Sequence record: PV730299.1
Origin: a phage
Direction: 5' to 3' (one strand)
DNA: 64,000 bases
Position 1 is the first letter of the stretch. The number at the start of each line of letters is the position of its first letter. A program made the translations under genes and the position numbers. The notes below the pieces were generated by a model. That model ran no database searches, was not told the origin of the DNA, and worked only from the letters and a program-made list of their open reading frames with translations. Positions 2,347 to 38,887 of this stretch are shown one piece after another.

Positions 2347-3105
2347 TTATCCCATGTAGAAGTCGATAGGGTACTGCTGGCCAGTGCGCAGTTCTTCCTC
2401 TAAACGCTCGATCTCCGCTTCAGCCTCACTGAACATACTATCGCCATCCAGCTCGATACCGCCAGGGAGACGGATGCCTCTTGCCTTCTTGAGCACTTCT
2501 GCCCAGCGGCGCTTGACCAACGCAGTTGCATATGCCTTCAGCCACATATCATTCCATGCTTCTTCATTACCCTCAACCTCTGGGTCGATGTTCTGGAAGC
2601 ATTTGAACGCCAACACCTCGTCCTTTATCAGGGCGAATTGTGGGTAGAGTTTGCGCTGGAATTTCTTGTAAACGAAGGTGCGCTTCACGTTCAGCACACT
2701 GGTGATGTCAGACAAACGCTGTTGCATTGAAACATAGTCGACCAAGCGGATGGAAACGAGGGCGGCCTTTGGTACCAACATGGCTTGGGCCATCTGCCAT
2801 TGAGGGGTTGCCCAGTTACCGATCGATTCAATCGGAGGGCCAACGATGACTTCAACCACGTCGTCGATGTCTTTGGGGAATTCGATGTAACCATTGGTGA
2901 TAGTTTCTTCAGTCACCTGGTGAACAAAGAATGCGTCCTGACTGCCATCACGATGATACTCCCAAAACTTCTGTAGAGCATCGTCTACAGCATCCGAAAC
3001 TTGCGTTGGGTCAAGGTTGATCTGAATTACAGGTGCCCCCAATTTCTTGAGAATGTAATTCATAAATCCTTTACGATCAACAATAGAATTAACGGCCATT
3101 GCCAT
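2347..3105 (-). CDS. hypothetical late protein, 252 aa (start may be ATG at 3099)
   Basis: ORF track; AAGGGGA RBS better spaced for ATG at 3099. Confidence 0.6.
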   Translation of the reverse strand: MAMAVNSIVDRKGFMNYILKKLGAPVIQINLDPTQVSDAVDDALQKFWEYHRDGSQDAFFVHQVTEETITNGYIEFPKDIDDVVEVIVGPPIESIGNWATPQWQMAQAMLVPKAALVSIRLVDYVSMQQRLSDITSVLNVKRTFVYKKFQRKLYPQFALIKDEVLAFKCFQNIDPEVEGNEEAWNDMWLKAYATALVKRRWAEVLKKARGIRLPGGIELDGDSMFSEAEAEIERLEEELRTGQQYPIDFYMG

Positions 3106-3427
3106 TCCCCTTGTTGCTCTGGATATCAGCGACGGTGATACGTAAAGTGCGAACGTCGTCGGATAGACTGTTGCTATTGAGTTTCAACTCAGCAACGTTC
3201 TGCTTGACGTAGTTAACGTCTGTGTTTAACACAGCAATCTTCTCATTCATATCGTTCACCTTGGTGAGGATTAGGTCGACCTTGTTGGAGTCACGCTCAA
3301 CCACATCAAGGCGATTCTCAAATTTACCCATCATCCAAACAACCGAGCCAACAGAGACTATCGTCGCCGTCAGCACCCCGGTGAGGATCGCTTTCACATC
3401 GATCACAGTGTCAGTTTGGGTTGCCAT
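3089..3427 (-). CDS. small membrane / coiled-coil protein, 113 aa
   Basis: Start placed at internal ATG 3427 with AGGAGG RBS (ORF track extends to 3451); hydrophobic helix then heptad-like segment. Confidence 0.5.
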   Translation of the reverse strand: MATQTDTVIDVKAILTGVLTATIVSVGSVVWMMGKFENRLDVVERDSNKVDLILTKVNDMNEKIAVLNTDVNYVKQNVAELKLNSNSLSDDVRTLRITVADIQSNKGNGNGR

Positions 3428-3659
3428 CTTGGCCTCCTGACGGGAGTTCAATCCCGAGGTGTTCTGCCATGAGTTGTACCATCGCTGTCAGTTGATCTAT
3501 TTGCGCTGCCTGCGCTGCAATAGTTCTGTCCTTTTCTTCCTGATTTCGACGAGCGTTAAGTGCTGCCAAACCGGCAGCATTGTCTGTGCAGATGATAGCC
3601 CCAGGGCAAGAGCTACTTCTCATCATCGATGCATGCCCTTGTACTTTTACACCACGCAT
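3411..3659 (-). CDS. hypothetical protein, 82 aa
   Basis: ORF track; ATG preceded by GAGGA RBS and a GC hairpin. Confidence 0.5.
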   Translation of the reverse strand: MRGVKVQGHASMMRSSSCPGAIICTDNAAGLAALNARRNQEEKDRTIAAQAAQIDQLTAMVQLMAEHLGIELPSGGQDGNPN

Positions 3660-3708
3660 GATAATATCCTCTGTTAATGGCGGGGCAACCCCGCCTTGTT
3701 AATACTAC

Positions 3709-6700
3709 TTATGCCAGAGCAATCAAACGGAAATCTTTGAATGACGGCGGTGCTGTGCGGTTGCCTCTGACCAGCAGGCGGATCTTCAGGCCAACGAAAG
3801 GATTGGTGCTGTCTACAGTCTTGTCATACTCATATTCGAAGAATGTAGAACCGTCATTGACCAGAGGGGATGTCGGTGTCACAGTTTCCCATGCCACATC
3901 ATCCATCTCCTGGCCTGCGCGCAGCAGTTTAACTTGCACAGTCATTGAAGACTGAGAAGGTAGCATCGCGCCGAAGTATTGCTTCAGAGTGGTACAAGGG
4001 TTATCGAATCCGATATCCTTGGTCACATAGCTGAACACATCTTCAAACGGATCCACCCCGTAGGTGTTGAAGATGATAGTGAAATCATCACCGTCGATCA
4101 TTGGAGCCGTGTAGACATTACTCTCGTTGCGAGTCATGGTTGCACGAACCTGGAAGTCGCCCACCTGACGATAGATACCTTCCGTCGGCAGAGGCACGTC
4201 CGTATCGGATTCGAACTCAACCCAATCAGAGAATGAGTTGGAGGTCGCATCGCGATAGCGGTATTCCAGTTTCAACACAGATCCTTCCAGGGCTGAATTG
4301 GTGACGCTTGCGTAGAACATGTCTACCAAGTAGTTGCCTAGGAAAGAAGCCGCTTCACCACCAATCTGACCGTCGGAGTCGGCGTTGGAACTCAGAACGA
4401 ATTTGAACGTCGTGAACGTCGCATCAGTCACAGTGTGTTGAGCGTTCAGTTGCTCAGGAGTGAAACCGCAACCACCCGTCAACCCAGACAGAGTAACACT
4501 TTCACCCGCAGTCAGGCCATGCCCCGGAGCGTACACAGTAACAGTTGAAGAACCGTTGACACATTTCACGGTGTTCAGACCCAGAGGACGGATCTTCGGA
4601 CCGACTTTAGCATCGAAGGTCACGATGTTTGAACCAGCGGAGAAGTTGCAGCGATATACACGGAACTTCATATCGGCAGTCTGGTTTGGAGTCCAGGTCG
4701 TACCATTTGAAGATGTGAAGAACACGCCAGTGTACGGCTGTTTGGCAATGAACTCGTTGGTCAGCAAGTTCTTCTTGCCCATCTCTGCGATGTATGCGTT
4801 GTAGTCCTGAGTGTTGGCCAAGAGAACAATCGCGAACTCAGTCTGTGCCTGCAGATACACAGGATAATCAAACTTGAACATCGTTGGTACAGAAGAGTCT
4901 GTGGAGACGGAAACTTCTGATGGATTCAGAGTCTTACGAGTGACGACAGTCGTCGCTGGCAGACCATTGCTCATCTCGCGGATTTCCAGAGTGATCGGGA
5001 TATCACGGGACTTGGTAGAGAAGAAGACTTCGATGCCTTCGATGTATTCGCCGCCGATATTGGTGGCAACCATGAAGGACTGGGCGATAGGATCTTTCCA
5101 CTTCGCGACTTCAACCGTCTCTGTTTTGTTTTCCGTAGACTTGGTCGCAGTGTATCCCAGGACGCGGGTGTTGACATAAGTCTTCTGGATGCCCTGTTTC
5201 TTGCCGAAGGACTTATGAACAGCCTCAGCATTGGTCAGGGTATCATCAGCAGACTTGCTGTCCACAGGACTGTCAGTCAGACGGAAGACGTTGTCACCCG
5301 TGTTAAACTTGATAGTCTCGTTCTGAGGAACCGCAAACACACCTTTGATGTTGCCGTTGGCATCAGTGTTCAACGCACCACCCAGTACACCACCGTTTGG
5401 GGTACAGTACGCGCTCACATCACGTCCAGAGAAGAACGGATACACACGAGTGAACGGACGCAGCCCTGTGGCTTCGAAGTTGATGTTCGTTTTGCGCATG
5501 TATGGGATTACCTGCGTTTCAACGATCTGCTCGCCAGTCAGGGTAGTGGTCGTCTTGTCGGTGTACGTGTACGTGGTGACGTCACGGGTAGACACAGTCG
5601 TGCGGTAGCGATAGCCCCACCATACACCACCTGCACCATGCGGTTCCCACACACGCTCAGACACGGACACAGTACGCCATGTGCCATACACGGAACCTTC
5701 TTTGATCGCACCACGGGTGTTGATCGTTTCGTTGATCACACGTGGAGTAACATAGTAGTTCTCAAACCAGTAATCAGTAGTCGGGTTCAGCTTCAAGAAG
5801 CCTTCCCAGTTGAACACCGCATACGGGTTCACGTTGATGGTCGTGGTTGCATAGTCCTGGCGGACAGAGATCTCACGGGTGTAGTTGCATACAACCATGC
5901 CATCCTGAACGTTGTTCCAACCGACTGGCGTCAGGTCAATCGCGTTCTGCTGAACAAACGGACGCAGGCGACCATTGTCAGTGTCAATTGAACCCACCCA
6001 GTCTGCAGACAAATCGTCGATCAGACGGAAGTCTTTGAACGGGTCTGCTGCGATACCGTTCTTGAAGCGCGGGTTGCCAGTAATTGGATCGAACACCTGT
6101 TGTGACATCGCCGAGGATTCTAGCTGTGACAGTGAGGTGTAATATTCGACATTGGAGATACGGGTCTCCAGTTTACCGATATCGCGCATCGTGTAGCGGC
6201 GGTTGTCGATAGTACGAATCTGGATGTCGTCAATGTTGGCCGTGTAAGGCGGGATCATCAATTCATACAGGCGCATGCCGTTGTCTGGGATCGCAGGGGA
6301 AGCCAGGTTGTTGGAACTCACACCACGAGCAACGTTGAACACACCGTTGTCTGCCAGATACACAGCATCAATACGAGGCAGATAGTACTCTGCATCTAGG
6401 ATGATCGCGGTATTCGGGCGAACCATGTCCGTGTCCGACGCTCCGCTGGTGATCTTGGGACGGAAGTCCAGACTATCGGCCAACCCATACACAGTACCAG
6501 AACTGGATGAAACATAGTTCGGGATGTCTGGGTAGTTGATGGACGAATAGGAGTCCGCTGTGAAGAAATCACCAGAGCTGTGAGCGAAATACTGATACAC
6601 CACCGTGAACGTCCCTGAAATGGCTCCTGTGGACGATATGAGGTTAGAAAGGTAGTATGCAGCATCACGCTGACCGCCGTCCAGAGTGAAGTTAGAGGTG

Positions 6701-30821: not shown

Positions 30822-33821
30822 ATGACCGTTTTCTATACGAACGTTGCCCGAAGGGGCAATGACCTGTTGATTCGAATTGCAGATGACATGGGTAATCGCC
30901 GTCTGTTGAAAAAGAAATTCGAACCCACTCTCTATTTACCCACGGCTGACTATTCAAATGTTGAAAAGGTCGGTCTTCTCAATGAACCCCTGGTAGCCAA
31001 GCAGTTCCCTTCCATGCGTGACGCTGACAACTATCTTGAAGAGTACAAGGAAGTCCAGGGTGCTGCCATTTACGGACAGACCGATTATGCATACCAGTTC
31101 ATCGCCCATAGCTTTCCTGGAAAGATTGAGCCGGATTATTCCAACATCCATATTGCTAACCTCGATATCGAAGTGTTCTCCGCCGGGTGGAAAGACGGAA
31201 AGATGACCAAAGGTCCATTCCCTCACCCAACCATTGAGCAGCAGACGTTCAAAGGGAATGAGGCGCGCATTCGCCGCTTCCATAAACAAGTGCTGGCCAA
31301 CCATGAATTTGTCCGTGAGCACTTCCCTGGTTCTTTCATCAGCAACAACGTCACTGATCAGTTCCCTATCATTGATAGCAATGGTAAGATCACCCAGGAC
31401 ATGAATGCGGCGTTCCCCATTACCCTGATCCAGCTTCAGGATATGGCGACCAATAAGTTCATGGTCTGGGGTATGCCCTGTGCCAAAGACCGCAATAAGT
31501 TCGCATACGACACCGAAGACAAAGAGATCGGCGGCCTTGAGGTTGTTTATCAGGAGTTCACCACCGAACAAGATCTGCTGCGCTCGTTCCTAGACTTCTG
31601 GTCGGAGCGTCAGTTCGACGGATGGACTGGCTGGAACATTGAGACGTTTGATAGCCCTTATCTTGTTGAGCGCATGAATCAGGTTCTGGGTGAGGCTGAA
31701 ACGTCGCGCCTCAGTCCTTGGGGTATCATTAAGAAGCGTATCATTCGCGATAAGAAGGGCGATATCACGACGTATCAGTTCGTGGGCTGTCCTATGCTCG
31801 ATTATATGCAGATCTACAAGAAACACACGTACACCACCCGTGAACGCTACTCTCTTGACTGGATTGCGTATTGTGAGCTGGGTGAGAAGAAGATGGACTA
31901 CAGTGAGAGCAAGTCGCTCTTTGATCTGTACTTCAACGACTACTGCAAACACACCCGATATGGTATCAAAGACGTTAAGCTGGTATGGCGACTTGAACAG
32001 AAGCTGCGCCTGCTCCAGCTGATGTTCGTCCTTGCTTACCGCACCAAGTCCAACTATGAGGACGGCCTGGGTACTGTGGCTCCGTGGCTGGCCATGTGCT
32101 ACTATCGCCTGTACGAGAAGGGGATAGTACCTAAGATCCAGCGTGTATACGATGGTCCGACCGACTTTGAGGGTGCATACGTCATGGATGTGACACCAGG
32201 AATCTACTTCTGGGTCTTCTCGGAAGATTTGAACTCCCTGTATCCTCACATCATTCAGCAGTACAACCTCGGTCCAGAGACTATCGTTGGCGACAAACAC
32301 CAGCGCCGCGAGATTATTGAGGCTATGTGTGAAGAGCTGGCTGCTCAGATGAATAACATGGCAACGCCGATGCACAAACGTCGGTTGATGAAAGCCCTTC
32401 ACGACAAGCTGTTGCGTGCGGTTGATGAACGCCTGCAGGTTGTTGATGAGTTGGTTGCCCTGGGTGAGTTCCACTTTGAAACCCTGCGCCGCTACAACGT
32501 GTCGTTCACACCGAACGTTCAATTCTTCAGCAACGAGAAGATGTCGTTCCTGTCTGAAATCATGCGCGGTATCTACAGCGACCGTAAAGTAGAGAAGGCC
32601 AAGGGGCTGAAGTACGAGCAGTGGGCTGGTTGGTGTAAAGAGATGTCGAAGGGCGACTTCCATCTTGAGTCTGCCATGAAGTCTCGCTACTATGACCCAG
32701 AGTGGTATGAAGAGCACAAGAACATTGATCTTGATGCCCTGACCGAAGTGATGAAGAAGTGGGAAGACCTGGGCGTCGCTCAAGATACCCTTCAACAAGG
32801 TCTGAAGATCTTGATGAACGCAGGTTATGGCGCGATCTCAAACGTCTGGTTCAAAGAGTACTTCAACCTCAACATTGCCGAAGCCATCACCACATCCGGT
32901 CAGCTGATCAACAAGTGGAACAAGCGTTACACCGATGATTATCTGAACAAGCTGTGTGGTACAACAGGCCAGGACTTCGTCATCGCAGGGGATACCGACT
33001 CCAACTACATCTGCATTGAGCGTCTTGTCAAGCATTTGTGGCCTGATGTTACTGACCATCATGCTATGGTTGATAATATCGACCAATGGATCAAAGACAA
33101 CTACCAGCCGAAGACCAATGAGTGGGCACAGCTTCTGTGTAACACCATGAACGGATTTGAACAGCGCATGGTGTGGGAGCGTGAGGTCATTGCGTCAGCC
33201 GCTGTCTGGCGAGCCAAGAAGATGTATGCCATGGCCGTGTACGACAGTGAGGGTATCAAGTACGAGAAGCCGAAGATCAAGTTCAAAGGTCTGGAAGCCC
33301 GCAAGTCCACCACACCGGAATGGTGTCGTGAGCGTCTTGTCAAGTGCTATGAGAAGATCCTACTCGGCACCGAAGAGGAAGTGCAGACGCTCATCTCCCA
33401 GTACAAAGAGGAGTATATGAAACTCTCTGTAGACGATATCGCCAAGGCGTCAGGTGTGTCCGACATAGAGAAGTGTGTGGCTGCTGACGGATCGTTTATA
33501 TCTGGTGCTCATTTTGCTGCCAAGGCGTGTGTGGGCTACAACCGTCTGGTTGAGAAGAACGAAGATCTGGGTCTACCGATGATCGAGTCGGGTGATAAGG
33601 TACAGATGGTGTTGTTGAAGCCGGGCAACCCGTTTGGGCAGAACTACTTTGCATATCCTGAGTTCTTCCCCGAGGAGCTTGGTCTGGGCAAATGGGTGGA
33701 TTATCAGGCGGCCTTTGAGAAGTCCTTCATTGATCCGATTCAGTCTATCCTCGACGTGGTCGGCTGGTCACACAAGCGCCGTGTGAACCTTCTTGCCATG
33801 ATGCAAAAGAAGAAAGGTTGA
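30822..33821 (+). CDS. DNA polymerase, family B, T4 gp43-like
   Basis: FPSMRDA N-terminal motif, SLYPHII and GDTDS polymerase motifs, AITTSGQ; TGGAG RBS. Confidence 0.95.
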   Translation: MTVFYTNVARRGNDLLIRIADDMGNRRLLKKKFEPTLYLPTADYSNVEKVGLLNEPLVAKQFPSMRDADNYLEEYKEVQGAAIYGQTDYAYQFIAHSFPGKIEPDYSNIHIANLDIEVFSAGWKDGKMTKGPFPHPTIEQQTFKGNEARIRRFHKQVLANHEFVREHFPGSFISNNVTDQFPIIDSNGKITQDMNAAFPITLIQLQDMATNKFMVWGMPCAKDRNKFAYDTEDKEIGGLEVVYQEFTTEQDLLRSFLDFWSERQFDGWTGWNIETFDSPYLVERMNQVLGEAETSRLSPWGIIKKRIIRDKKGDITTYQFVGCPMLDYMQIYKKHTYTTRERYSLDWIAYCELGEKKMDYSESKSLFDLYFNDYCKHTRYGIKDVKLVWRLEQKLRLLQLMFVLAYRTKSNYEDGLGTVAPWLAMCYYRLYEKGIVPKIQRVYDGPTDFEGAYVMDVTPGIYFWVFSEDLNSLYPHIIQQYNLGPETIVGDKHQRREIIEAMCEELAAQMNNMATPMHKRRLMKALHDKLLRAVDERLQVVDELVALGEFHFETLRRYNVSFTPNVQFFSNEKMSFLSEIMRGIYSDRKVEKAKGLKYEQWAGWCKEMSKGDFHLESAMKSRYYDPEWYEEHKNIDLDALTEVMKKWEDLGVAQDTLQQGLKILMNAGYGAISNVWFKEYFNLNIAEAITTSGQLINKWNKRYTDDYLNKLCGTTGQDFVIAGDTDSNYICIERLVKHLWPDVTDHHAMVDNIDQWIKDNYQPKTNEWAQLLCNTMNGFEQRMVWEREVIASAAVWRAKKMYAMAVYDSEGIKYEKPKIKFKGLEARKSTTPEWCRERLVKCYEKILLGTEEEVQTLISQYKEEYMKLSVDDIAKASGVSDIEKCVAADGSFISGAHFAAKACVGYNRLVEKNEDLGLPMIESGDKVQMVLLKPGNPFGQNYFAYPEFFPEELGLGKWVDYQAAFEKSFIDPIQSILDVVGWSHKRRVNLLAMMQKKKG

Positions 33822-33834
33822 TTCAATAAACCAA

Positions 33835-33854
33835 AGGGGGATATAATTCCCCCT
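33835..33854 (+). terminator. hairpin after DNA polymerase gene (weak U-tract)
   Basis: Stem AGGGGG/CCCCCT, loop ATATAATT; preceded by TTCAATAAA. Confidence 0.35.
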
Positions 33855-33883: not shown

Positions 33884-34225
33884 ATGAAACTCAATAAGAT
33901 TCTTCTGGTGTGCGCTCTGGCTTTCTCTACCACTGCGTGTTCCACCCTTCTGGACGTTGCTTCTACTGTAGACCTTGACGCGCCGACGTTCACCAATGAG
34001 CAGGCCGTGTCCAAGATGGAAGACACCATCAAGGCGCATGCAGCACTGGACAACACTACCCCAGGTCCGCTCCAAACTGTCTGCAACTATGACGATTCCA
34101 TCCAGGAAGACGAAACTTACCACTGCATCACCTACGTGAAGCAGGCCTCCGTCGTTCTGTATGCAGATTGTACCGAAGAACAGTGTGTTGCTACAGGCTA
34201 CGATAAAGTTGAGGAAGACAAATGA
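33884..34225 (+). CDS. putative secreted protein or lipoprotein, 113 aa
   Basis: Signal-peptide-like N-terminus ending LAFSTTAC; start set to ATG 33884 with AGGTGA RBS. Confidence 0.5.
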   Translation: MKLNKILLVCALAFSTTACSTLLDVASTVDLDAPTFTNEQAVSKMEDTIKAHAALDNTTPGPLQTVCNYDDSIQEDETYHCITYVKQASVVLYADCTEEQCVATGYDKVEEDK

Positions 34226-35001
34226 ACAACCTGGTTTGTATCTATGATATGAAATCAAAGGTCGGTGGCCTGTATCGCGTCCTCGTGGATGTTGACCTGA
34301 CGTTGGTCGACAGCCTCTCCCCTTGGGTGCAGTGGTTTAACGAAGAGAACATCGCCGCCGCTGCTATCGCTACGGGGGAACATAAGTCATACCAGTTCCA
34401 GCCGATTACCAAAGAGTGTTATATGTCCCATGCTGGCGACCTGGCTATTCTGATGCGTGAACGTGCGCATCCGGCGTGGCTATACCATGAAGTCCAATTG
34501 GGGATGCACAAACAACGTGTGCCAAGCGGTAACGATCCTATGGACTGGTGGCGTCGCCCTGACTTGTACGCCAAGATGAACCCACTTCCTGGTGCTTACG
34601 AGTTCCTGGTGAATCTGAAGAAGATTCTGCTCGAAGACTTTGACAATGTTGAATTCATCGCGGTGTCGAAGTGCGAGCCGGAACACGAGCGCAGCAAGCG
34701 TCAGTTTGTCTATGATAAGTTCCCTGGTATCTTCAACGGGTTTGTCAGCACCGACGAAAAGCATCTGCTGGCTGGCGATGTCCTGATTGATGACAATCCG
34801 AAGTATGTCGAGCCATGCGGTCTGAACAACATCTTTGTCATCTTTGTTCCTCAGGGCAATTATGAAAAACTGGATCTTTCGAATTCGGAAGACATGCTTT
34901 ATATTAAACCAGTAGAAGGCCAGAATCACTTCGACTTCCTGAACCGCAATATTGTTGAAGTGGTTAACCGCCTGATTAGTCATTATCAATACGTCCGATA
35001 G
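34222..35001 (+). CDS. HAD-superfamily hydrolase, possible nucleotidase/phosphatase
   Basis: N-terminal DVDLTLVD (DxDxT) HAD motif; ATGA start/stop overlap with upstream gene. Confidence 0.6.
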   Translation: MNNLVCIYDMKSKVGGLYRVLVDVDLTLVDSLSPWVQWFNEENIAAAAIATGEHKSYQFQPITKECYMSHAGDLAILMRERAHPAWLYHEVQLGMHKQRVPSGNDPMDWWRRPDLYAKMNPLPGAYEFLVNLKKILLEDFDNVEFIAVSKCEPEHERSKRQFVYDKFPGIFNGFVSTDEKHLLAGDVLIDDNPKYVEPCGLNNIFVIFVPQGNYEKLDLSNSEDMLYIKPVEGQNHFDFLNRNIVEVVNRLISHYQYVR

Positions 35002-35010
35002 GAGGACATC

Positions 35011-35316
35011 GTGCAAGAACAATCCAAGTTTGGGGAAACCCCAGACAAGCGTTCCGGTGATAGCGACATGGATAGCGTGATTAACCATGTGAACAACTTC
35101 ATTCGTCAGCAGGAGACTCCAACTCCTATCGGTGCAGCCAAGGCTCTTCATGATGTACTGGTGAAGATCGGCCAGCGCTCTGAAGCGGATGAAATCTTCT
35201 ATAACTTTGAAGACCAGTATAAAGTGAAGTTTGAAGAAAACGGTCGTCCGCAGGTTGCTGTGTTCTGGGCACCTTGGCTGGGCGGCGTGAGCTGGCGTAT
35301 TGAGGATGCTGTGTAA
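35011..35316 (+). CDS. hypothetical protein, 101 aa (GTG start)
   Basis: AGGAGG RBS 5 nt upstream of GTG. Confidence 0.5.
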   Translation: MQEQSKFGETPDKRSGDSDMDSVINHVNNFIRQQETPTPIGAAKALHDVLVKIGQRSEADEIFYNFEDQYKVKFEENGRPQVAVFWAPWLGGVSWRIEDAV

Positions 35317-36002
35317 TGCTGTCGCTCTACCTGATCACGAATCTCGTCAATCATAAATTCTATATCGGTGTCACCTCAGAACCGGATAGGCGGTTGGCTG
35401 AGCATAAGTGTGGTCAGGGGAGCATTGCATTACAACGAGCGTTCAAGAAATACGGTGAAGACCAGTTCAAGTTTGAAGTTCTGTTCCGAGGGAAAGATTC
35501 GGTTATCCTTGAGATAGAGTCTGAACTGGTCTGCCAGGAGATCCTTGACTCTGGGTGGTGCTACAACATGGTCGTCGGGGGTGGGAAGCCTCCATTGGCC
35601 ACGCCAGAGTCATCCGCAAAGAGCGCCGCAACCCGCAAACGTTTGATCGCTGAAGGTAAGATTAAACCTCCACCAAGACTCACCCCTGAAGCACAAGCCA
35701 GAAAGGGTAAGATCATAAGCAAATTGATGTCAGAAGGGAAGATCCCCAAACCACCAAGACCTTCCTCTGAATCTCAAACGCGTGGAGGGGGAACTAGGAA
35801 GAGGCTGCATGCTCTTGGTCTGATAGACATTGGTCCTGGTCGCGATGAAAAGATTTACAAATGGCAGCACAAAGATGGTCGCATCGTTGAGTTAAGAAGA
35901 TGCGACATGGAACTTCAATATGGCCTCCCTTCCGGTAATATAACGAATCTCTTGAAAGGTAGGGCTAAAACATGTCTCGGTTGGAGAATATTAAATGGCT
36001 AA
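35316..36002 (+). CDS. GIY-YIG homing endonuclease (Seg-like), free-standing
   Basis: N-terminal LYLITN-x-KFYIGVT with downstream Arg and EH residues; basic repetitive C-terminal DNA-binding-like region. Confidence 0.75.
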   Translation: MLSLYLITNLVNHKFYIGVTSEPDRRLAEHKCGQGSIALQRAFKKYGEDQFKFEVLFRGKDSVILEIESELVCQEILDSGWCYNMVVGGGKPPLATPESSAKSAATRKRLIAEGKIKPPPRLTPEAQARKGKIISKLMSEGKIPKPPRPSSESQTRGGGTRKRLHALGLIDIGPGRDEKIYKWQHKDGRIVELRRCDMELQYGLPSGNITNLLKGRAKTCLGWRILNG

Positions 36003-36912
36003 AATAATTGTAGTGAAAGGCACCTCGGCCACGGGCAAGGGTACGAGAGTGGTCCAGTTCATCGAATGGCTGCGCACTAAGCTGGAGCCTACCGAACTGA
36101 CCTACACCGTTGGTGACAAGACTCGCCCGTTTGGCCTGAAGTTCGGAGAGCTGAAGTTAATCTTCGTTGGGCAGTACACCGTGTCTAACAAATCCGGTCT
36201 GGCTTCCTGGACTTCAATGGATGCAATCCATGCTGCTACAGGCTCAGGCGATATTGCTCGTGATCTAATCAAGTGCTGGTTGGTTCAGGGATACACTCTG
36301 GTGTGTGAGGGCGAACCTCTCATGCTATCGGACAAATGGCGTCCTGAATGGATGTTCAAGAACTATCCGATTGAATCATTGGCGCTGCTGTACTTTGCGT
36401 ACCCCGACCGCTATCAGTACGATGCTCGTATCCGTGGTCGATCTGGTAAAGAAGCAGGGAACTCCGGCTGGTCGCGCAACGAATCTTACTACAAGGAGTT
36501 TGAGAAGTCGAAGGCCGAAATGCTGGCGCTGGGCTTCACTGTGGCTGTTGATGATTACAGCGGACAGGATATCCTGTATAAATCACCGGATGCCAACACC
36601 AAGGAGTTCACAACCAAACAGCAGTCTGAGTTGGCGGTACTACCGTTCGACGCCCCGCTGTGGGTTGTGGGTAATGCGATTTGTCATCAGATCCGCTCTG
36701 AACTGCGTGGTGTTGACATGCACACCAAAGACTTCTACGCCTACTGTGAAACCAATCCGATGACTCGTGAAATCGGCGGCCAGGATCCTTTGGCGCACAG
36801 AGTCCCTGAGAAGCCGCAGAAGGCATCCAAAACTAAAACCAAGGCGAGCGCCCAGCCAGAAGCACCGAAGGCAGCGTCGCGCTCTCTCCTTGACCTGATG
36901 AAGAAGGGGTGA
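35995..36912 (+). CDS. P-loop kinase-like protein (candidate nucleotide or DNA-base kinase)
   Basis: N-terminal KGTSATGKGT Walker-A-like motif; overlaps stop of homing endonuclease gene. Confidence 0.55.
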   Translation: MAKIIVVKGTSATGKGTRVVQFIEWLRTKLEPTELTYTVGDKTRPFGLKFGELKLIFVGQYTVSNKSGLASWTSMDAIHAATGSGDIARDLIKCWLVQGYTLVCEGEPLMLSDKWRPEWMFKNYPIESLALLYFAYPDRYQYDARIRGRSGKEAGNSGWSRNESYYKEFEKSKAEMLALGFTVAVDDYSGQDILYKSPDANTKEFTTKQQSELAVLPFDAPLWVVGNAICHQIRSELRGVDMHTKDFYAYCETNPMTREIGGQDPLAHRVPEKPQKASKTKTKASAQPEAPKAASRSLLDLMKKG

Positions 36913-36914
36913 TC

Positions 36915-37112
36915 ATGAAACGGTTGTCTAATTATCTGTTGTTCATTGGTCTGGTTATGGCAGCCGTTTCAATGTGTACTGCCCTAGCCTATCATTTCAC
37001 CCCTCTGGACTTAACAACCTCAGAGAAGTTGAACGTGACTGTGATGTACTGTATTGGCGCGGTGATGTCTATCGGCGCTGCTGGTTACAAAATATTCAAG
37101 GAACCAAAATGA
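36915..37112 (+). CDS. small membrane protein, 65 aa
   Basis: Two hydrophobic helices; ATG with AGGGGTGA RBS. Confidence 0.45.
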   Translation: MKRLSNYLLFIGLVMAAVSMCTALAYHFTPLDLTTSEKLNVTVMYCIGAVMSIGAAGYKIFKEPK

Positions 37113-37489
37113 AAATTCAAATCCCTCGCGATGCTGTGGCTGTTGCGATCGACTACACCGGAAACGCCAAGCACATTACTGCCGTGCGCCTGATTCCTGA
37201 AAAGAACTGCGTCATCCCTCAGTTCCAACTGAATGCCAATCCGTCGTCCAAAGACTTTGGCAAGTGGTTGCAGGCTGCTCCGTTCCGTACCCAGACGAAC
37301 GCTCAGATGTTCATCTCGAGTAAGACCCACACCGCAGCCCGTCTGTGGTTCGTGACCGCTGACCGTCGCTTTGTCGATATGTGGGAACGTCCGATGGGGT
37401 TCGTGAAGCCGGAAGATATTCAGCTGGCTCCTGAGCCTGAAGCTGTGGCTCCTGAAGAGGAAGCGAAAGATGAAAATCAAGCAGGTTGA
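37109..37489 (+). CDS. hypothetical protein, 126 aa
   Basis: ATGA overlap with upstream stop. Confidence 0.55.
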   Translation: MKIQIPRDAVAVAIDYTGNAKHITAVRLIPEKNCVIPQFQLNANPSSKDFGKWLQAAPFRTQTNAQMFISSKTHTAARLWFVTADRRFVDMWERPMGFVKPEDIQLAPEPEAVAPEEEAKDENQAG

Positions 37490-37655
37490 TTTTATCTTCA
37501 TGATGTTGATGTTCGTTATCTTTACGGTTTCGCTGGTCGGCGTCATGGTCACAGAAGGAGTGCAACAGCGCCCATTCTTGGTGATATGTCCTGTATCTAT
37601 CGCCACTTTCTTCTATCTGGCGTTCCGTGTTGAACTCGGGAGTAAAATCGGATGA
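37470..37655 (+). CDS. small membrane protein, 61 aa
   Basis: ORF track; hydrophobic; overlaps neighbours at both ends. Confidence 0.45.
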   Translation: MKIKQVDFIFMMLMFVIFTVSLVGVMVTEGVQQRPFLVICPVSIATFFYLAFRVELGSKIG

Positions 37656-38887
37656 CACATCTGTCTAAAATGCCGCAGGGATATAAAGCCCCTGAAAAAT
37701 GGAAATACCCGATTGATCTGGCAATAGATTATCGTAAGCCAGAAAATCGCATGTACCTACTCAAGGCTTGGGTGGAGGCGCTGTCCTACACCGAAGAGCA
37801 CAACCAGCAGATGCGTCTGATGGACTATGCGATCGAAGTCACTGAAGGTATCAGCCTCGAACAGAAAGTCGAGCGCAAGATCTGGATGGCATTCCTGTGG
37901 GGTTGTTGCTATAACGCCGTCGGGCCGTGGACGATCTACAGTGAGTTCCCTGTACCACCCCAGTCCAAAGAAGGGATGCAGCGCTTCTCTGATTGGTATA
38001 ATCTGAACTTTGATCGCATGCGATTCGATACCGACTGTCGCTACCGCAAGTCCAAGATGATTCCGTGTGTTCAGTCCTATATTGACTGGCTGGCTGGCCG
38101 TACTCAATATGACGCTTTCCGTGGGATGTTGGTGTGCATCGATAAGACAGAACAATTCACCCAGCTGTGGGACACGGCGATGTCCTGGAAATACTTCGGT
38201 CGCCTGAGCGCCTGGAACTTCCTGGAAGCCCTGAACATGGTCTTCGGGAACGAATACACCATTGACGTCCCTGGCTTCATGCTGCGTGATCGTGATGGAA
38301 GCGAGTCCAACCGTAATGGCGCGGCGTTCTTGTCCAACCGTGACGATTGGGTGACTAAACACGGGAAGAAAAAGATCAACGGTTGTCCTATCACGGATGA
38401 AGAGTGTGACATCCTTGAGGCCGACCTTGAGCAGGCGTTCCAGGATTGTGTGGCTGAGTTCGGGCACCTGACGTTCATCAACCGCCTGAACTTTGAAACC
38501 TCCGGCGCTTGTTGGCTGAAGAAATTCTTCCGACTGAAGAATACCCGTTACATCGGGTGGGACGCAGAGCGTACCTGGGATGAGATAGACTACATGGAAC
38601 GCGTCTGGCCTGAATACTCCTGCGCAGAGCTCTGGGAAGCCCGTTCGCTCTGGCTGCCAGATACCCTGTTATGTGAAAAGGCTCCTGCAGGGCACGTTCC
38701 AGGCGTCCAGAAGTGGAAGATGCCTGTATTCTTTGAGACTGGTGTTCCTCTGCATATCTGGCACCTGCAAAAGGGTACGCGCTGGGAACCATCCGAGGTA
38801 TGTACGAACCTGAAGATGCCTGTGCGCAAGGTTGAGGACAAGTCGAAGTCCAGCAGCGTCAACCTCATGGCACTCTTGAAACGCTGA
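37652..38887 (+). CDS. hypothetical protein, 411 aa, Trp/Cys-rich; possible partner of the kinase
   Basis: ORF track; ATGA-coupled to upstream genes; no motif I can assign. Confidence 0.6.
   Translation: MTHLSKMPQGYKAPEKWKYPIDLAIDYRKPENRMYLLKAWVEALSYTEEHNQQMRLMDYAIEVTEGISLEQKVERKIWMAFLWGCCYNAVGPWTIYSEFPVPPQSKEGMQRFSDWYNLNFDRMRFDTDCRYRKSKMIPCVQSYIDWLAGRTQYDAFRGMLVCIDKTEQFTQLWDTAMSWKYFGRLSAWNFLEALNMVFGNEYTIDVPGFMLRDRDGSESNRNGAAFLSNRDDWVTKHGKKKINGCPITDEECDILEADLEQAFQDCVAEFGHLTFINRLNFETSGACWLKKFFRLKNTRYIGWDAERTWDEIDYMERVWPEYSCAELWEARSLWLPDTLLCEKAPAGHVPGVQKWKMPVFFETGVPLHIWHLQKGTRWEPSEVCTNLKMPVRKVEDKSKSSSVNLMALLKR

Follow-up and report, generated by a model that had tools for sequence, protein, structure and literature searches.

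The window, a 64,000-nucleotide stretch of phage DNA (PV730299.1), carries a free-standing GIY-YIG homing endonuclease gene (HEG) at 35316..36002 on the + strand, with an ATG start and 228 codons plus stop. This is a real gene and not a chance frame, because it possesses Pfam and PHROG matches, full-length homologues in 40 phage records, and a dN/dS of 0.06-0.22. It is preceded by the 101-codon DUF7254 gene (35011..35316, + strand; Pfam DUF7254, E=1.4e-51), the TAA of which overlaps the HEG ATG. A HAD-type hydrolase gene (34222-35001), matching the Pfam NT5C deoxyribonucleotidase family (E=1.6e-8), lies one gene farther upstream. Directly downstream of the HEG is the gene of 5-hmdU DNA kinase 2 (HMUD2; 35995..36912, + strand; Pfam HMUD2, E=8.5e-158), after which comes an amino acid:DNA transferase gene (37652-38887). 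The HMUD2 kinase and this transferase show that the HEG lies within a ViI-like phage's thymidine-hypermodification cluster. The ViI homologue of the kinase, orf00243/gp243, is found at the equivalent position. It appears as "Kinase2" in PMC5889632, and is among the five ViI gene products that jointly reconstituted 5-NeOmdU synthesis in vitro (PMC5889632).

Over the 2.7-kb locus, the sequence closest to the window is that of Escherichia phage AV101 (96.3% identity), and Shigella phage Ag3 is also close. Both belong to the subfamily Aglimvirinae of the Ackermannviridae, and the window is that of an Agtrevirus-like Ackermannviridae phage. The preliminary description located the endonuclease gene between the HAD hydrolase and P-loop kinase genes, and reported overlaps with both neighbours. 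The kinase side of this description stands, the kinase being HMUD2, as do the two overlaps (1 base in 5', 8 nt in 3'). The HAD side has to be amended: the DUF7254 gene intervenes, and it is this gene, not that of the HAD hydrolase, that overlaps the HEG start.

The upstream edge of the HEG reads GTGTAATGC at 35311-35319, in which the DUF7254 stop codon (TAA, 35314-35316) and the HEG ATG (35316-35318) have one base in common. The downstream edge reads ATGGCTAA at 35995-36002; the kinase ATG at 35995 is located 8 nt within the HEG, which terminates with the TAA at 36000-36002. In relatives devoid of the HEG, the junction is a simple TAATG, which contains both the stop of DUF7254 and, overlapping it, the start of the kinase, as exemplified by phages MK-13 and SW16-7 (Agtrevirus), Cba120 and Vi01 (Kuttervirus), and UPM 2146 (Taipeivirus). 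Measured against this empty site, from one ATG to the next, the insert is therefore exactly 679 bp long. The translation start context of the HEG (35302..35318, + strand), formed by GAGG at 35302-35305 followed by TAATG, is the kinase gene's own in HEG-less relatives, as revealed by the junction sequences of 15 loci. The insert thus usurps the former translation start of the kinase. In exchange, its last codons provide the kinase with a replacement ribosome-binding site (35983..35997, + strand): a GGAG at 35983-35986, embedded in the C-terminal GWRI codons of the HEG, stands 8 nt ahead of the kinase ATG at 35995. With this new GGAG inside the insert, the operon stays functional. Every carrier keeps the GWRI/GGAG layout and the 8-nt overlap; even the HEG of the Vibrio phages, which is 50-61% identical, retains the same arrangement.

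A search of Rfam over positions 34000-37200 returned zero matches at E<=1 to an intron or any other RNA. A group I intron is therefore not found, and the HEG is free-standing, with its own start and stop between genes. No promoter or terminator specific to the HEG was found either: shuffled sequence contains at least as many consensus sites, and the promoter-like site closest to the gene (33818-33847) lies upstream of the entire operon. The base composition of the HEG is unremarkable, with a GC fraction of 0.482 versus 0.486 for the window. Among the stop-to-stop ORFs of at least 70 aa in the window, phmmer searches with this endonuclease and with the second type found at the junction (see below) retrieved only the HEG itself.

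The encoded protein

The HEG product matches Pfam GIY-YIG (PF01541) with 33.4 bits, above the curated cut-off of 22.6 (E=5.6e-8). It matches the "homing endonuclease" family phrog_19446 over its full length (E=6.6e-104), as well as the broad family phrog_314. A database search yielded only 24 full-length cluster representatives, mostly on contigs of ~115-160 kb, a length typical of Ackermannviridae genomes.

The protein is predicted to be composed of three parts. The catalytic GIY-YIG domain spans residues 1-95 (35316..35600, + strand) and harbors Y5, Y16, G18, R26, H30, E68, and N84. An alignment of 16 sequences, with identities as low as 27%, shows no variation at Y5, N9, K14, Y16, G18, R26, H30, G47, E68, Y83, N84, and G89, the canonical GIY-YIG catalytic set. 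The protein does not, therefore, lack the catalytic residues, and the GIY-YIG identity assigned to it in the preliminary description is borne out by the alignment. With phmmer, residues 4-57 align to I-TevI, placing Y5/Y16/G18/R26/H30 on Y6/Y17/G19/R27/H31. The AlphaFold model has a mean pLDDT of 80.7, reaching ~90 over the catalytic domain (residues 1-80), and its core displays the order beta-beta-alpha-alpha-beta-alpha. The top Foldseek matches of this model in the PDB are the I-TevI structures 1mk0/1ln0 (probability 1.00, TM 0.66-0.69 over 93-95 columns, 27-28% identity). The predicted structure thus shows an intact catalytic domain of the I-TevI type.

The catalytic domain is followed by a linker (residues 96-170; 35601..35825, + strand) with modelled helices at 97-112, 124-139, and 151-166. 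We read these helices as lying in Pro/Lys-rich repeats that would be of the NUMOD3 type. The C-terminal module (residues 171-228; 35826..35999, + strand), a putative DNA-binding domain, is modelled as a beta-hairpin followed by a helix-turn-helix. Residues 203-223 give a weak Pfam match to the I-HmuI NUMOD-like family (E=0.058, below cut-off), and I-HmuI comes at Foldseek rank 4 with a probability of 0.89 and a poor rmsd. As these Pfam and Foldseek matches are sub-threshold, the DNA-binding role of the C-terminus is just probable. Seven of its residues (Y181, W183, R195, Y202, I209, N211, and W223) are near-invariant. The dN/dS range given above was obtained over nine pairwise comparisons, and indicates that the protein is maintained under purifying selection.

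Distribution of the gene and divergence of its flanks

The 2.7-kb locus is matched by 241 phage records. The state of the DUF7254/kinase junction was scored in 54 evenly spaced rows spanning it: 40 are empty, 6 harbor the HEG type of the window (type A), and 8 a different insert of similar size (type B). The junction is thus empty in about three quarters of the ~240 related phage records. Type A is carried by 40 records, 22 of them from enterobacterial phages and 18 from Vibrio phages. The enterobacterial carriers fall in the genera Agtrevirus, Limestonevirus, Kuttervirus, and Taipeivirus. In all 40 carrier records the gene immediately precedes that of the kinase, and its frame is intact in each of the 17 carrier loci read. 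Type B, the other HEG, occupies the same junction in 29 records. An anchor scan of IMG/VR returned 21 loci, among which L021, L023, L027, and L033 were discarded as unrelated chance matches.

This comparison of presence and absence among relatives establishes that the site is variable and contested. The gene is far from universal at the locus, most of the sampled relatives (40/54) being empty. The suggestion, made from the window's sequence, that this junction is a mobility hotspot is supported by the occurrence of a second, different endonuclease gene at the identical position in the type B records. In Aglimvirinae phages, homing endonuclease genes have been reported to number 14-25 and to vary in position (PMC8472413), and a second paper likewise remarks on how numerous they are in this subfamily and how much their location varies (PMC5582154).

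The type B insert corresponds to F-LimXI (phrog_15209), known from Dickeya phage LIMEstone1 and its relatives and reported as a SegB-like free-standing endonuclease of the GIY-YIG type (PMC3296691). Its reading frame is fused with that of an HMUD2 kinase ~50% identical to the window's. Its sole Pfam match, SegE_GIY-YIG, is sub-threshold (E=0.078); type B is called an endonuclease on account of its PHROG matches and of the published report (PMC3296691).

The annotation of this region calls for a remark. In some records the kinase is mislabelled "homing endonuclease F-LimXI", an error that was taken from records in which F-LimXI is fused to the kinase and that has spread between records. Other mislabels have spread as well, the kinase being given as "guanylate kinase" and the DUF7254 gene as "thioredoxin".

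Between subfamilies, the synonymous divergence of the HEG is well under that of the flanking genes. When the window is compared with Kuttervirus pertopsoe, a member of a different subfamily, nucleotide identity reaches 92% in the HEG versus 74-80% in the upstream flanks (polymerase 3' end, NT5C, and DUF7254), and dS amounts to 0.31 in the HEG versus 0.78-1.26 in the flanks. With Taipeivirus FKP14, the HEG dS is 0.84, and that of the flanks ranges from 0.97 (ADDT) to saturated. With the nearer Limestonevirus XF4, the HEG dS (0.31) is not below that of the upstream flanks (0.30-0.43). Given the intergenus HEG dS values of 0.31-0.84, the transfers are not recent.

A short tract at the 5' end of the kinase gene (35995..36060, + strand), encompassing the P-loop codons, is identical in the window and in carriers from other genera. 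Nucleotides 1-66 of the window's kinase are 100% identical to those of the Kuttervirus carriers pertopsoe, maane, and SilasIsHot, and from nt 67 on, the nearest sequences are those of Agtrevirus. Over its first 150 nt, the window's kinase is 83% identical to that of its HEG-less congeners MK-13 and SW16-7. Two variants of the type A gene, A1 and A2, can be distinguished, the window carrying A1. Kinase nt 1-54 are exactly common to 11/11 A1 carriers, from three genera, which also have the upstream sequence GGATGCT(G/T)TGTAATG in common. The tract that moves with the HEG comprises the first ~57-66 nt of the kinase and ~12 nt upstream. Likewise, the Klebsiella-phage carriers differ from their HEG-less congeners in nt 1-66, the remaining kinase being 93-99% identical.

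The kinase allele linked to the HEG, termed K1, is found in 29 records, 17 of which are HEG-less. The latter all come from phages of Salmonella or E. coli that resemble Cba120, and are taken here as Kuttervirus, genus-level taxonomy having been read for Cba120 only. Outside Kuttervirus (AV101, ChubbyThor, XF4, Coodle, and the window), K1 is always found together with the HEG. K1 is native in Kuttervirus and looks imported elsewhere. Such a pattern is the one that would be expected of break-induced gene conversion from a Kuttervirus-like donor, and these comparisons show that the HEG has moved between phage genera along with a short piece of the kinase gene.

Probable homing, its alternatives, and the putative target

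Taken together, these data make it very probable that the gene at 35316-36002 is a free-standing, Seg-like GIY-YIG HEG that was inserted exactly between the DUF7254 stop and the kinase start, and that has spread by homing. During a mixed infection, the enzyme would cut both strands of the HEG-less allele of a related phage, the break probably falling within, or close to, the 5' part of the kinase gene that encodes the P-loop. Repair by recombination off the HEG-carrying genome would then copy the gene together with a short flanking tract. As hypermodified thymidine is part of the DNA of these phages, the substrate of the enzyme is presumably modified DNA. In the literature searched, no biochemical, cleavage, or homing study of this enzyme was found.

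A patchy distribution might also arise by deletion rather than by invasion, if the HEG were ancestral at the locus and had been lost many times. The conservation of the 8-nt overlap and of the GWRI/GGAG arrangement, even in the diverged Vibrio-phage copies, suggests an old association with the kinase, and the intergenus dS of the HEG is not close to zero. However, identical TAATG empty sites in three genera would demand repeated, perfectly precise 679-bp deletions, and between subfamilies the HEG dS is 2.5-4 times below that of the flanking genes. Furthermore, the kinase nt 1-66 common to the carriers conflict with the genus-level relations of the remaining gene. Ancestry followed by repeated loss is hence unlikely.

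The strong purifying selection acting on the protein, as well as the tight integration of its gene in an essential operon in which it has no promoter of its own, might instead reflect a domesticated nuclease. Its main role would then be to exclude or degrade the DNA of competitor phages or of the host, or to regulate the operon, rather than to copy its own gene. The T4 Seg enzymes bring about marker exclusion, and I-TevI acts as its own transcriptional repressor. Such a domestication is nevertheless hard to reconcile with the majority of relatives being without the gene and others having an unrelated HEG in its place, or with the transfer across genera and the co-conversion of flanks, which are typical of homing. 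Besides, marker exclusion in T4 itself results from homing-type cleavage, and does not constitute a clean alternative. Domestication thus has little to commend it as the main explanation. Finally, that the ORF is the inactive relic of a former homing endonuclease is highly improbable: homing endonuclease genes are expected to decay after fixation, and the literature searched reports no activity of this enzyme, but the frame is intact in all carrier loci read, no change of a catalytic residue is seen down to 27-35% identity, and dN/dS is far under 1.

If the gene spreads by homing, the adjoining kinase gene is its probable target. The preliminary description had the enzyme targeting a neighbouring gene in related phages, and we infer the same for the kinase gene from the co-conversion patterns. 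Within this gene, the target would most likely lie at the 5' end, in the P-loop codons. In HEG-less Kutterviruses, nucleotide diversity reaches 0.28 at kinase nt 31-60, versus 0.03-0.17 elsewhere in the first 540 nt. These 30 nucleotides encode the P-loop (GTSxxGKGTR), and codon swaps are observed there for Ser (AGC/AGT/TCG/TCT) and Arg (CGT/AGA).

Variant A2 of the HEG is carried by Ag3, RPN242, A221, and P46FS4. Nearly all of its difference from A1 is confined to the linker: between A1 and A2 (window versus Ag3), dS reaches 1.31 in the linker and 0.12-0.13 in the two terminal domains. In three of the A2 carriers the kinase is intact and has a 5' allele other than that of A1, and in the fourth, P46FS4, a 1-nt deletion in the P-loop codons shifts the kinase frame. 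These observations are compatible with a target at the 5' end of the kinase, but tight linkage would by itself account for them too. The possibility that K1 is an "immunity" allele pinpointing the target was considered and set aside as a firm conclusion, K1 being present in 17 HEG-less Kuttervirus records.

A more speculative view is that the junction is the seat of an ongoing conflict, in which the HEG would recognise the first ~60 nt of the kinase in hypermodified DNA, and A1, A2, and F-LimXI would each be associated with an allele of their own. This view is less likely than not. If true, it would explain the peak of variability at the P-loop, the multi-base synonymous swaps (AGC/TCG for Ser, CGT/AGA for Arg), and the frameshift of P46FS4.

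Comparison with known systems

With the Seg enzymes of phage T4, the HEG product shares an N-terminal GIY-YIG domain, 38-42% identical over ~85-97 residues to SegB of T4/T6; the named T4/T6/RB32 matches obtained with tblastn are all segB. It also shares a genetic situation with them, as a HEG located between genes of a lytic myovirus, patchy among relatives, and co-converting its flanking markers. In contrast, the tblastn matches to T4-type phages are limited to residues ~2-98, nothing being detected beyond the catalytic domain. The window's HEG, furthermore, resides in the Ackermannviridae, at a DNA-hypermodification kinase locus. As the similarity ends after the catalytic domain, neither SegB nor SegD is an orthologue of the protein, and "SegD-like" is a loose label. 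The orthology to T4 SegD that this label implies is rejected, since similarity over the full length of T4 SegD is not observed. Every feature by which a Seg-type free-standing homing endonuclease would be recognised from sequence is found here, bar the C-terminal module, whose match is weak.

With I-TevI, the common traits are the catalytic fold, the Tyr/Tyr/Arg/His/Glu/Asn set, and the predicted succession of a catalytic domain, a linker, and a small DNA-binding domain. I-TevI is, however, encoded by the intron of T4 td, whereas the window's HEG is free-standing and no intron RNA is detected, and the linker and C-terminal module of the two proteins display no detectable sequence homology. The comparison with SegA-G and I-TevI-like enzymes that had been proposed for this gene thus reveals a catalytic-domain similarity to both groups, with SegB as the best T4 match.

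F-LimXI shares with the window's HEG the same DUF7254/kinase junction and the match to phrog_314. The two genes, however, exhibit no DNA similarity, and their protein similarity is marginal. Moreover, the window's HEG ends at its own stop codon, whereas the F-LimXI type continues into the kinase.

On its own, the gene of the window matters little. What the analysis adds is the exact anatomy of the insertion, the presence of two HEGs at one junction, and a co-conversion tract in a DNA-hypermodification gene. Its value is modest: it documents well a natural case in which two unrelated endonuclease genes compete for the same junction, follows a short co-conversion tract from one phage genus to another, and points to a probable target within the thymidine-hypermodification pathway, which would imply an enzyme that cuts hypermodified DNA. 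Homologues 88-100% identical to the HEG product are already public, labelled "SegD-like protein", "homing endonuclease", or "GIY-YIG nuclease family protein". The genes of phages phiSboM-AG3, AV101, ChubbyThor, pertopsoe, and PWKp5, among others, belong to the same family, occupy the same locus, encode proteins 88-98% identical to that of the window, and differ in nothing substantive. The copy in the window is one more allele of variant A1, ordinary and known by annotation.

Mosaic structure of the endonuclease gene

Judged from sequence comparison, the GIY-YIG homing endonuclease gene (window 35316-36002, plus strand), which lies between the DUF7254 gene (35011-35316) and the gene of the 5-hmdU DNA kinase HMUD2 (35995-36912), is itself a mosaic. 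It exists in two variants, A1, found in the window, and A2. Their catalytic and C-terminal domains are nearly alike (dS of 0.12-0.13), and their central linkers (window 35601-35825, compared with the related-phage loci L036-L038 and L040) show a dS of 1.31 and a dN of 0.21. A1 and A2 are linked to different alleles of the kinase 5' end.

The only good sigma-70-like promoter match of the region (window 33818-33847, 10 of 12 positions) is located directly after the DNA polymerase gene, and the lipoprotein, NT5C, DUF7254, endonuclease, and kinase genes probably form a single transcription unit.

The P-loop segment of the kinase gene

Among Kutterviruses devoid of the endonuclease, nucleotides 31-60 of the kinase gene (window 36025-36054), which code for the P-loop, are the most variable 30-nt stretch of its first 540 nt, with a pi of 0.28 as compared to 0.03-0.17 elsewhere in these 540 nt. 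The P-loop-coding segment displays codon-family switches and short mosaic tracts, and the encoded residues are GTSATGKG in the window and GTSGTGKG in many relatives. In Salmonella phage P46FS4 (locus L040, about 3180-3245), the P-loop codons of the endonuclease-adjacent kinase carry a 1-nt deletion (GGGAAAGG-TACG), because of which the CDS has been annotated from 220 nt downstream. The deletion may stem from faulty sequencing, or may have been left by repair at the site where the enzyme is presumed to cut.

A second endonuclease type and mislabeled genes at the junction

In 29 records, the DUF7254/kinase junction harbors a different endonuclease, of the F-LimXI type (phrog_15209; "type B"). 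Its reading frame has no stop codon ahead of the HMUD2 kinase, resulting in a single ORF of 531-532 codons, as in phages vB_CECAV_050 (L003, 2595-4193), RC-2014 (L004, about 2592-4187, with a GTG start), and UTK0004 (L013, 2418-4013). This ORF may yield a fusion protein, or translation of the kinase may begin at Met codons within it. The kinase joined to this endonuclease is diverged, sharing ~50% identity with that of the window.

Wrong labels at this locus are propagated from record to record. Several records give the HMUD2 kinase as "putative homing endonuclease (F-LimXI)", the RefSeq entries of many relatives list it as "guanylate kinase", and the DUF7254 gene has been termed "putative thioredoxin". 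Annotation errors affect the loci of phages XF4 (L005, 3180-4109), Coodle (L045, 1880-2809), and SilasIsHot (L007, 3180-4085); in phage A221, the endonuclease ORF is intact but absent from the annotation.

The kinase 3' end and the following small membrane-protein gene of Kuttervirus UTK0004 are 95% identical to Agtrevirus window 36745-37112, to which other Kutterviruses are ~76% identical, with partial coverage. In UTK0004, the type B cassette seems to have introduced at least 1.8 kb originating from an Aglimvirinae donor.
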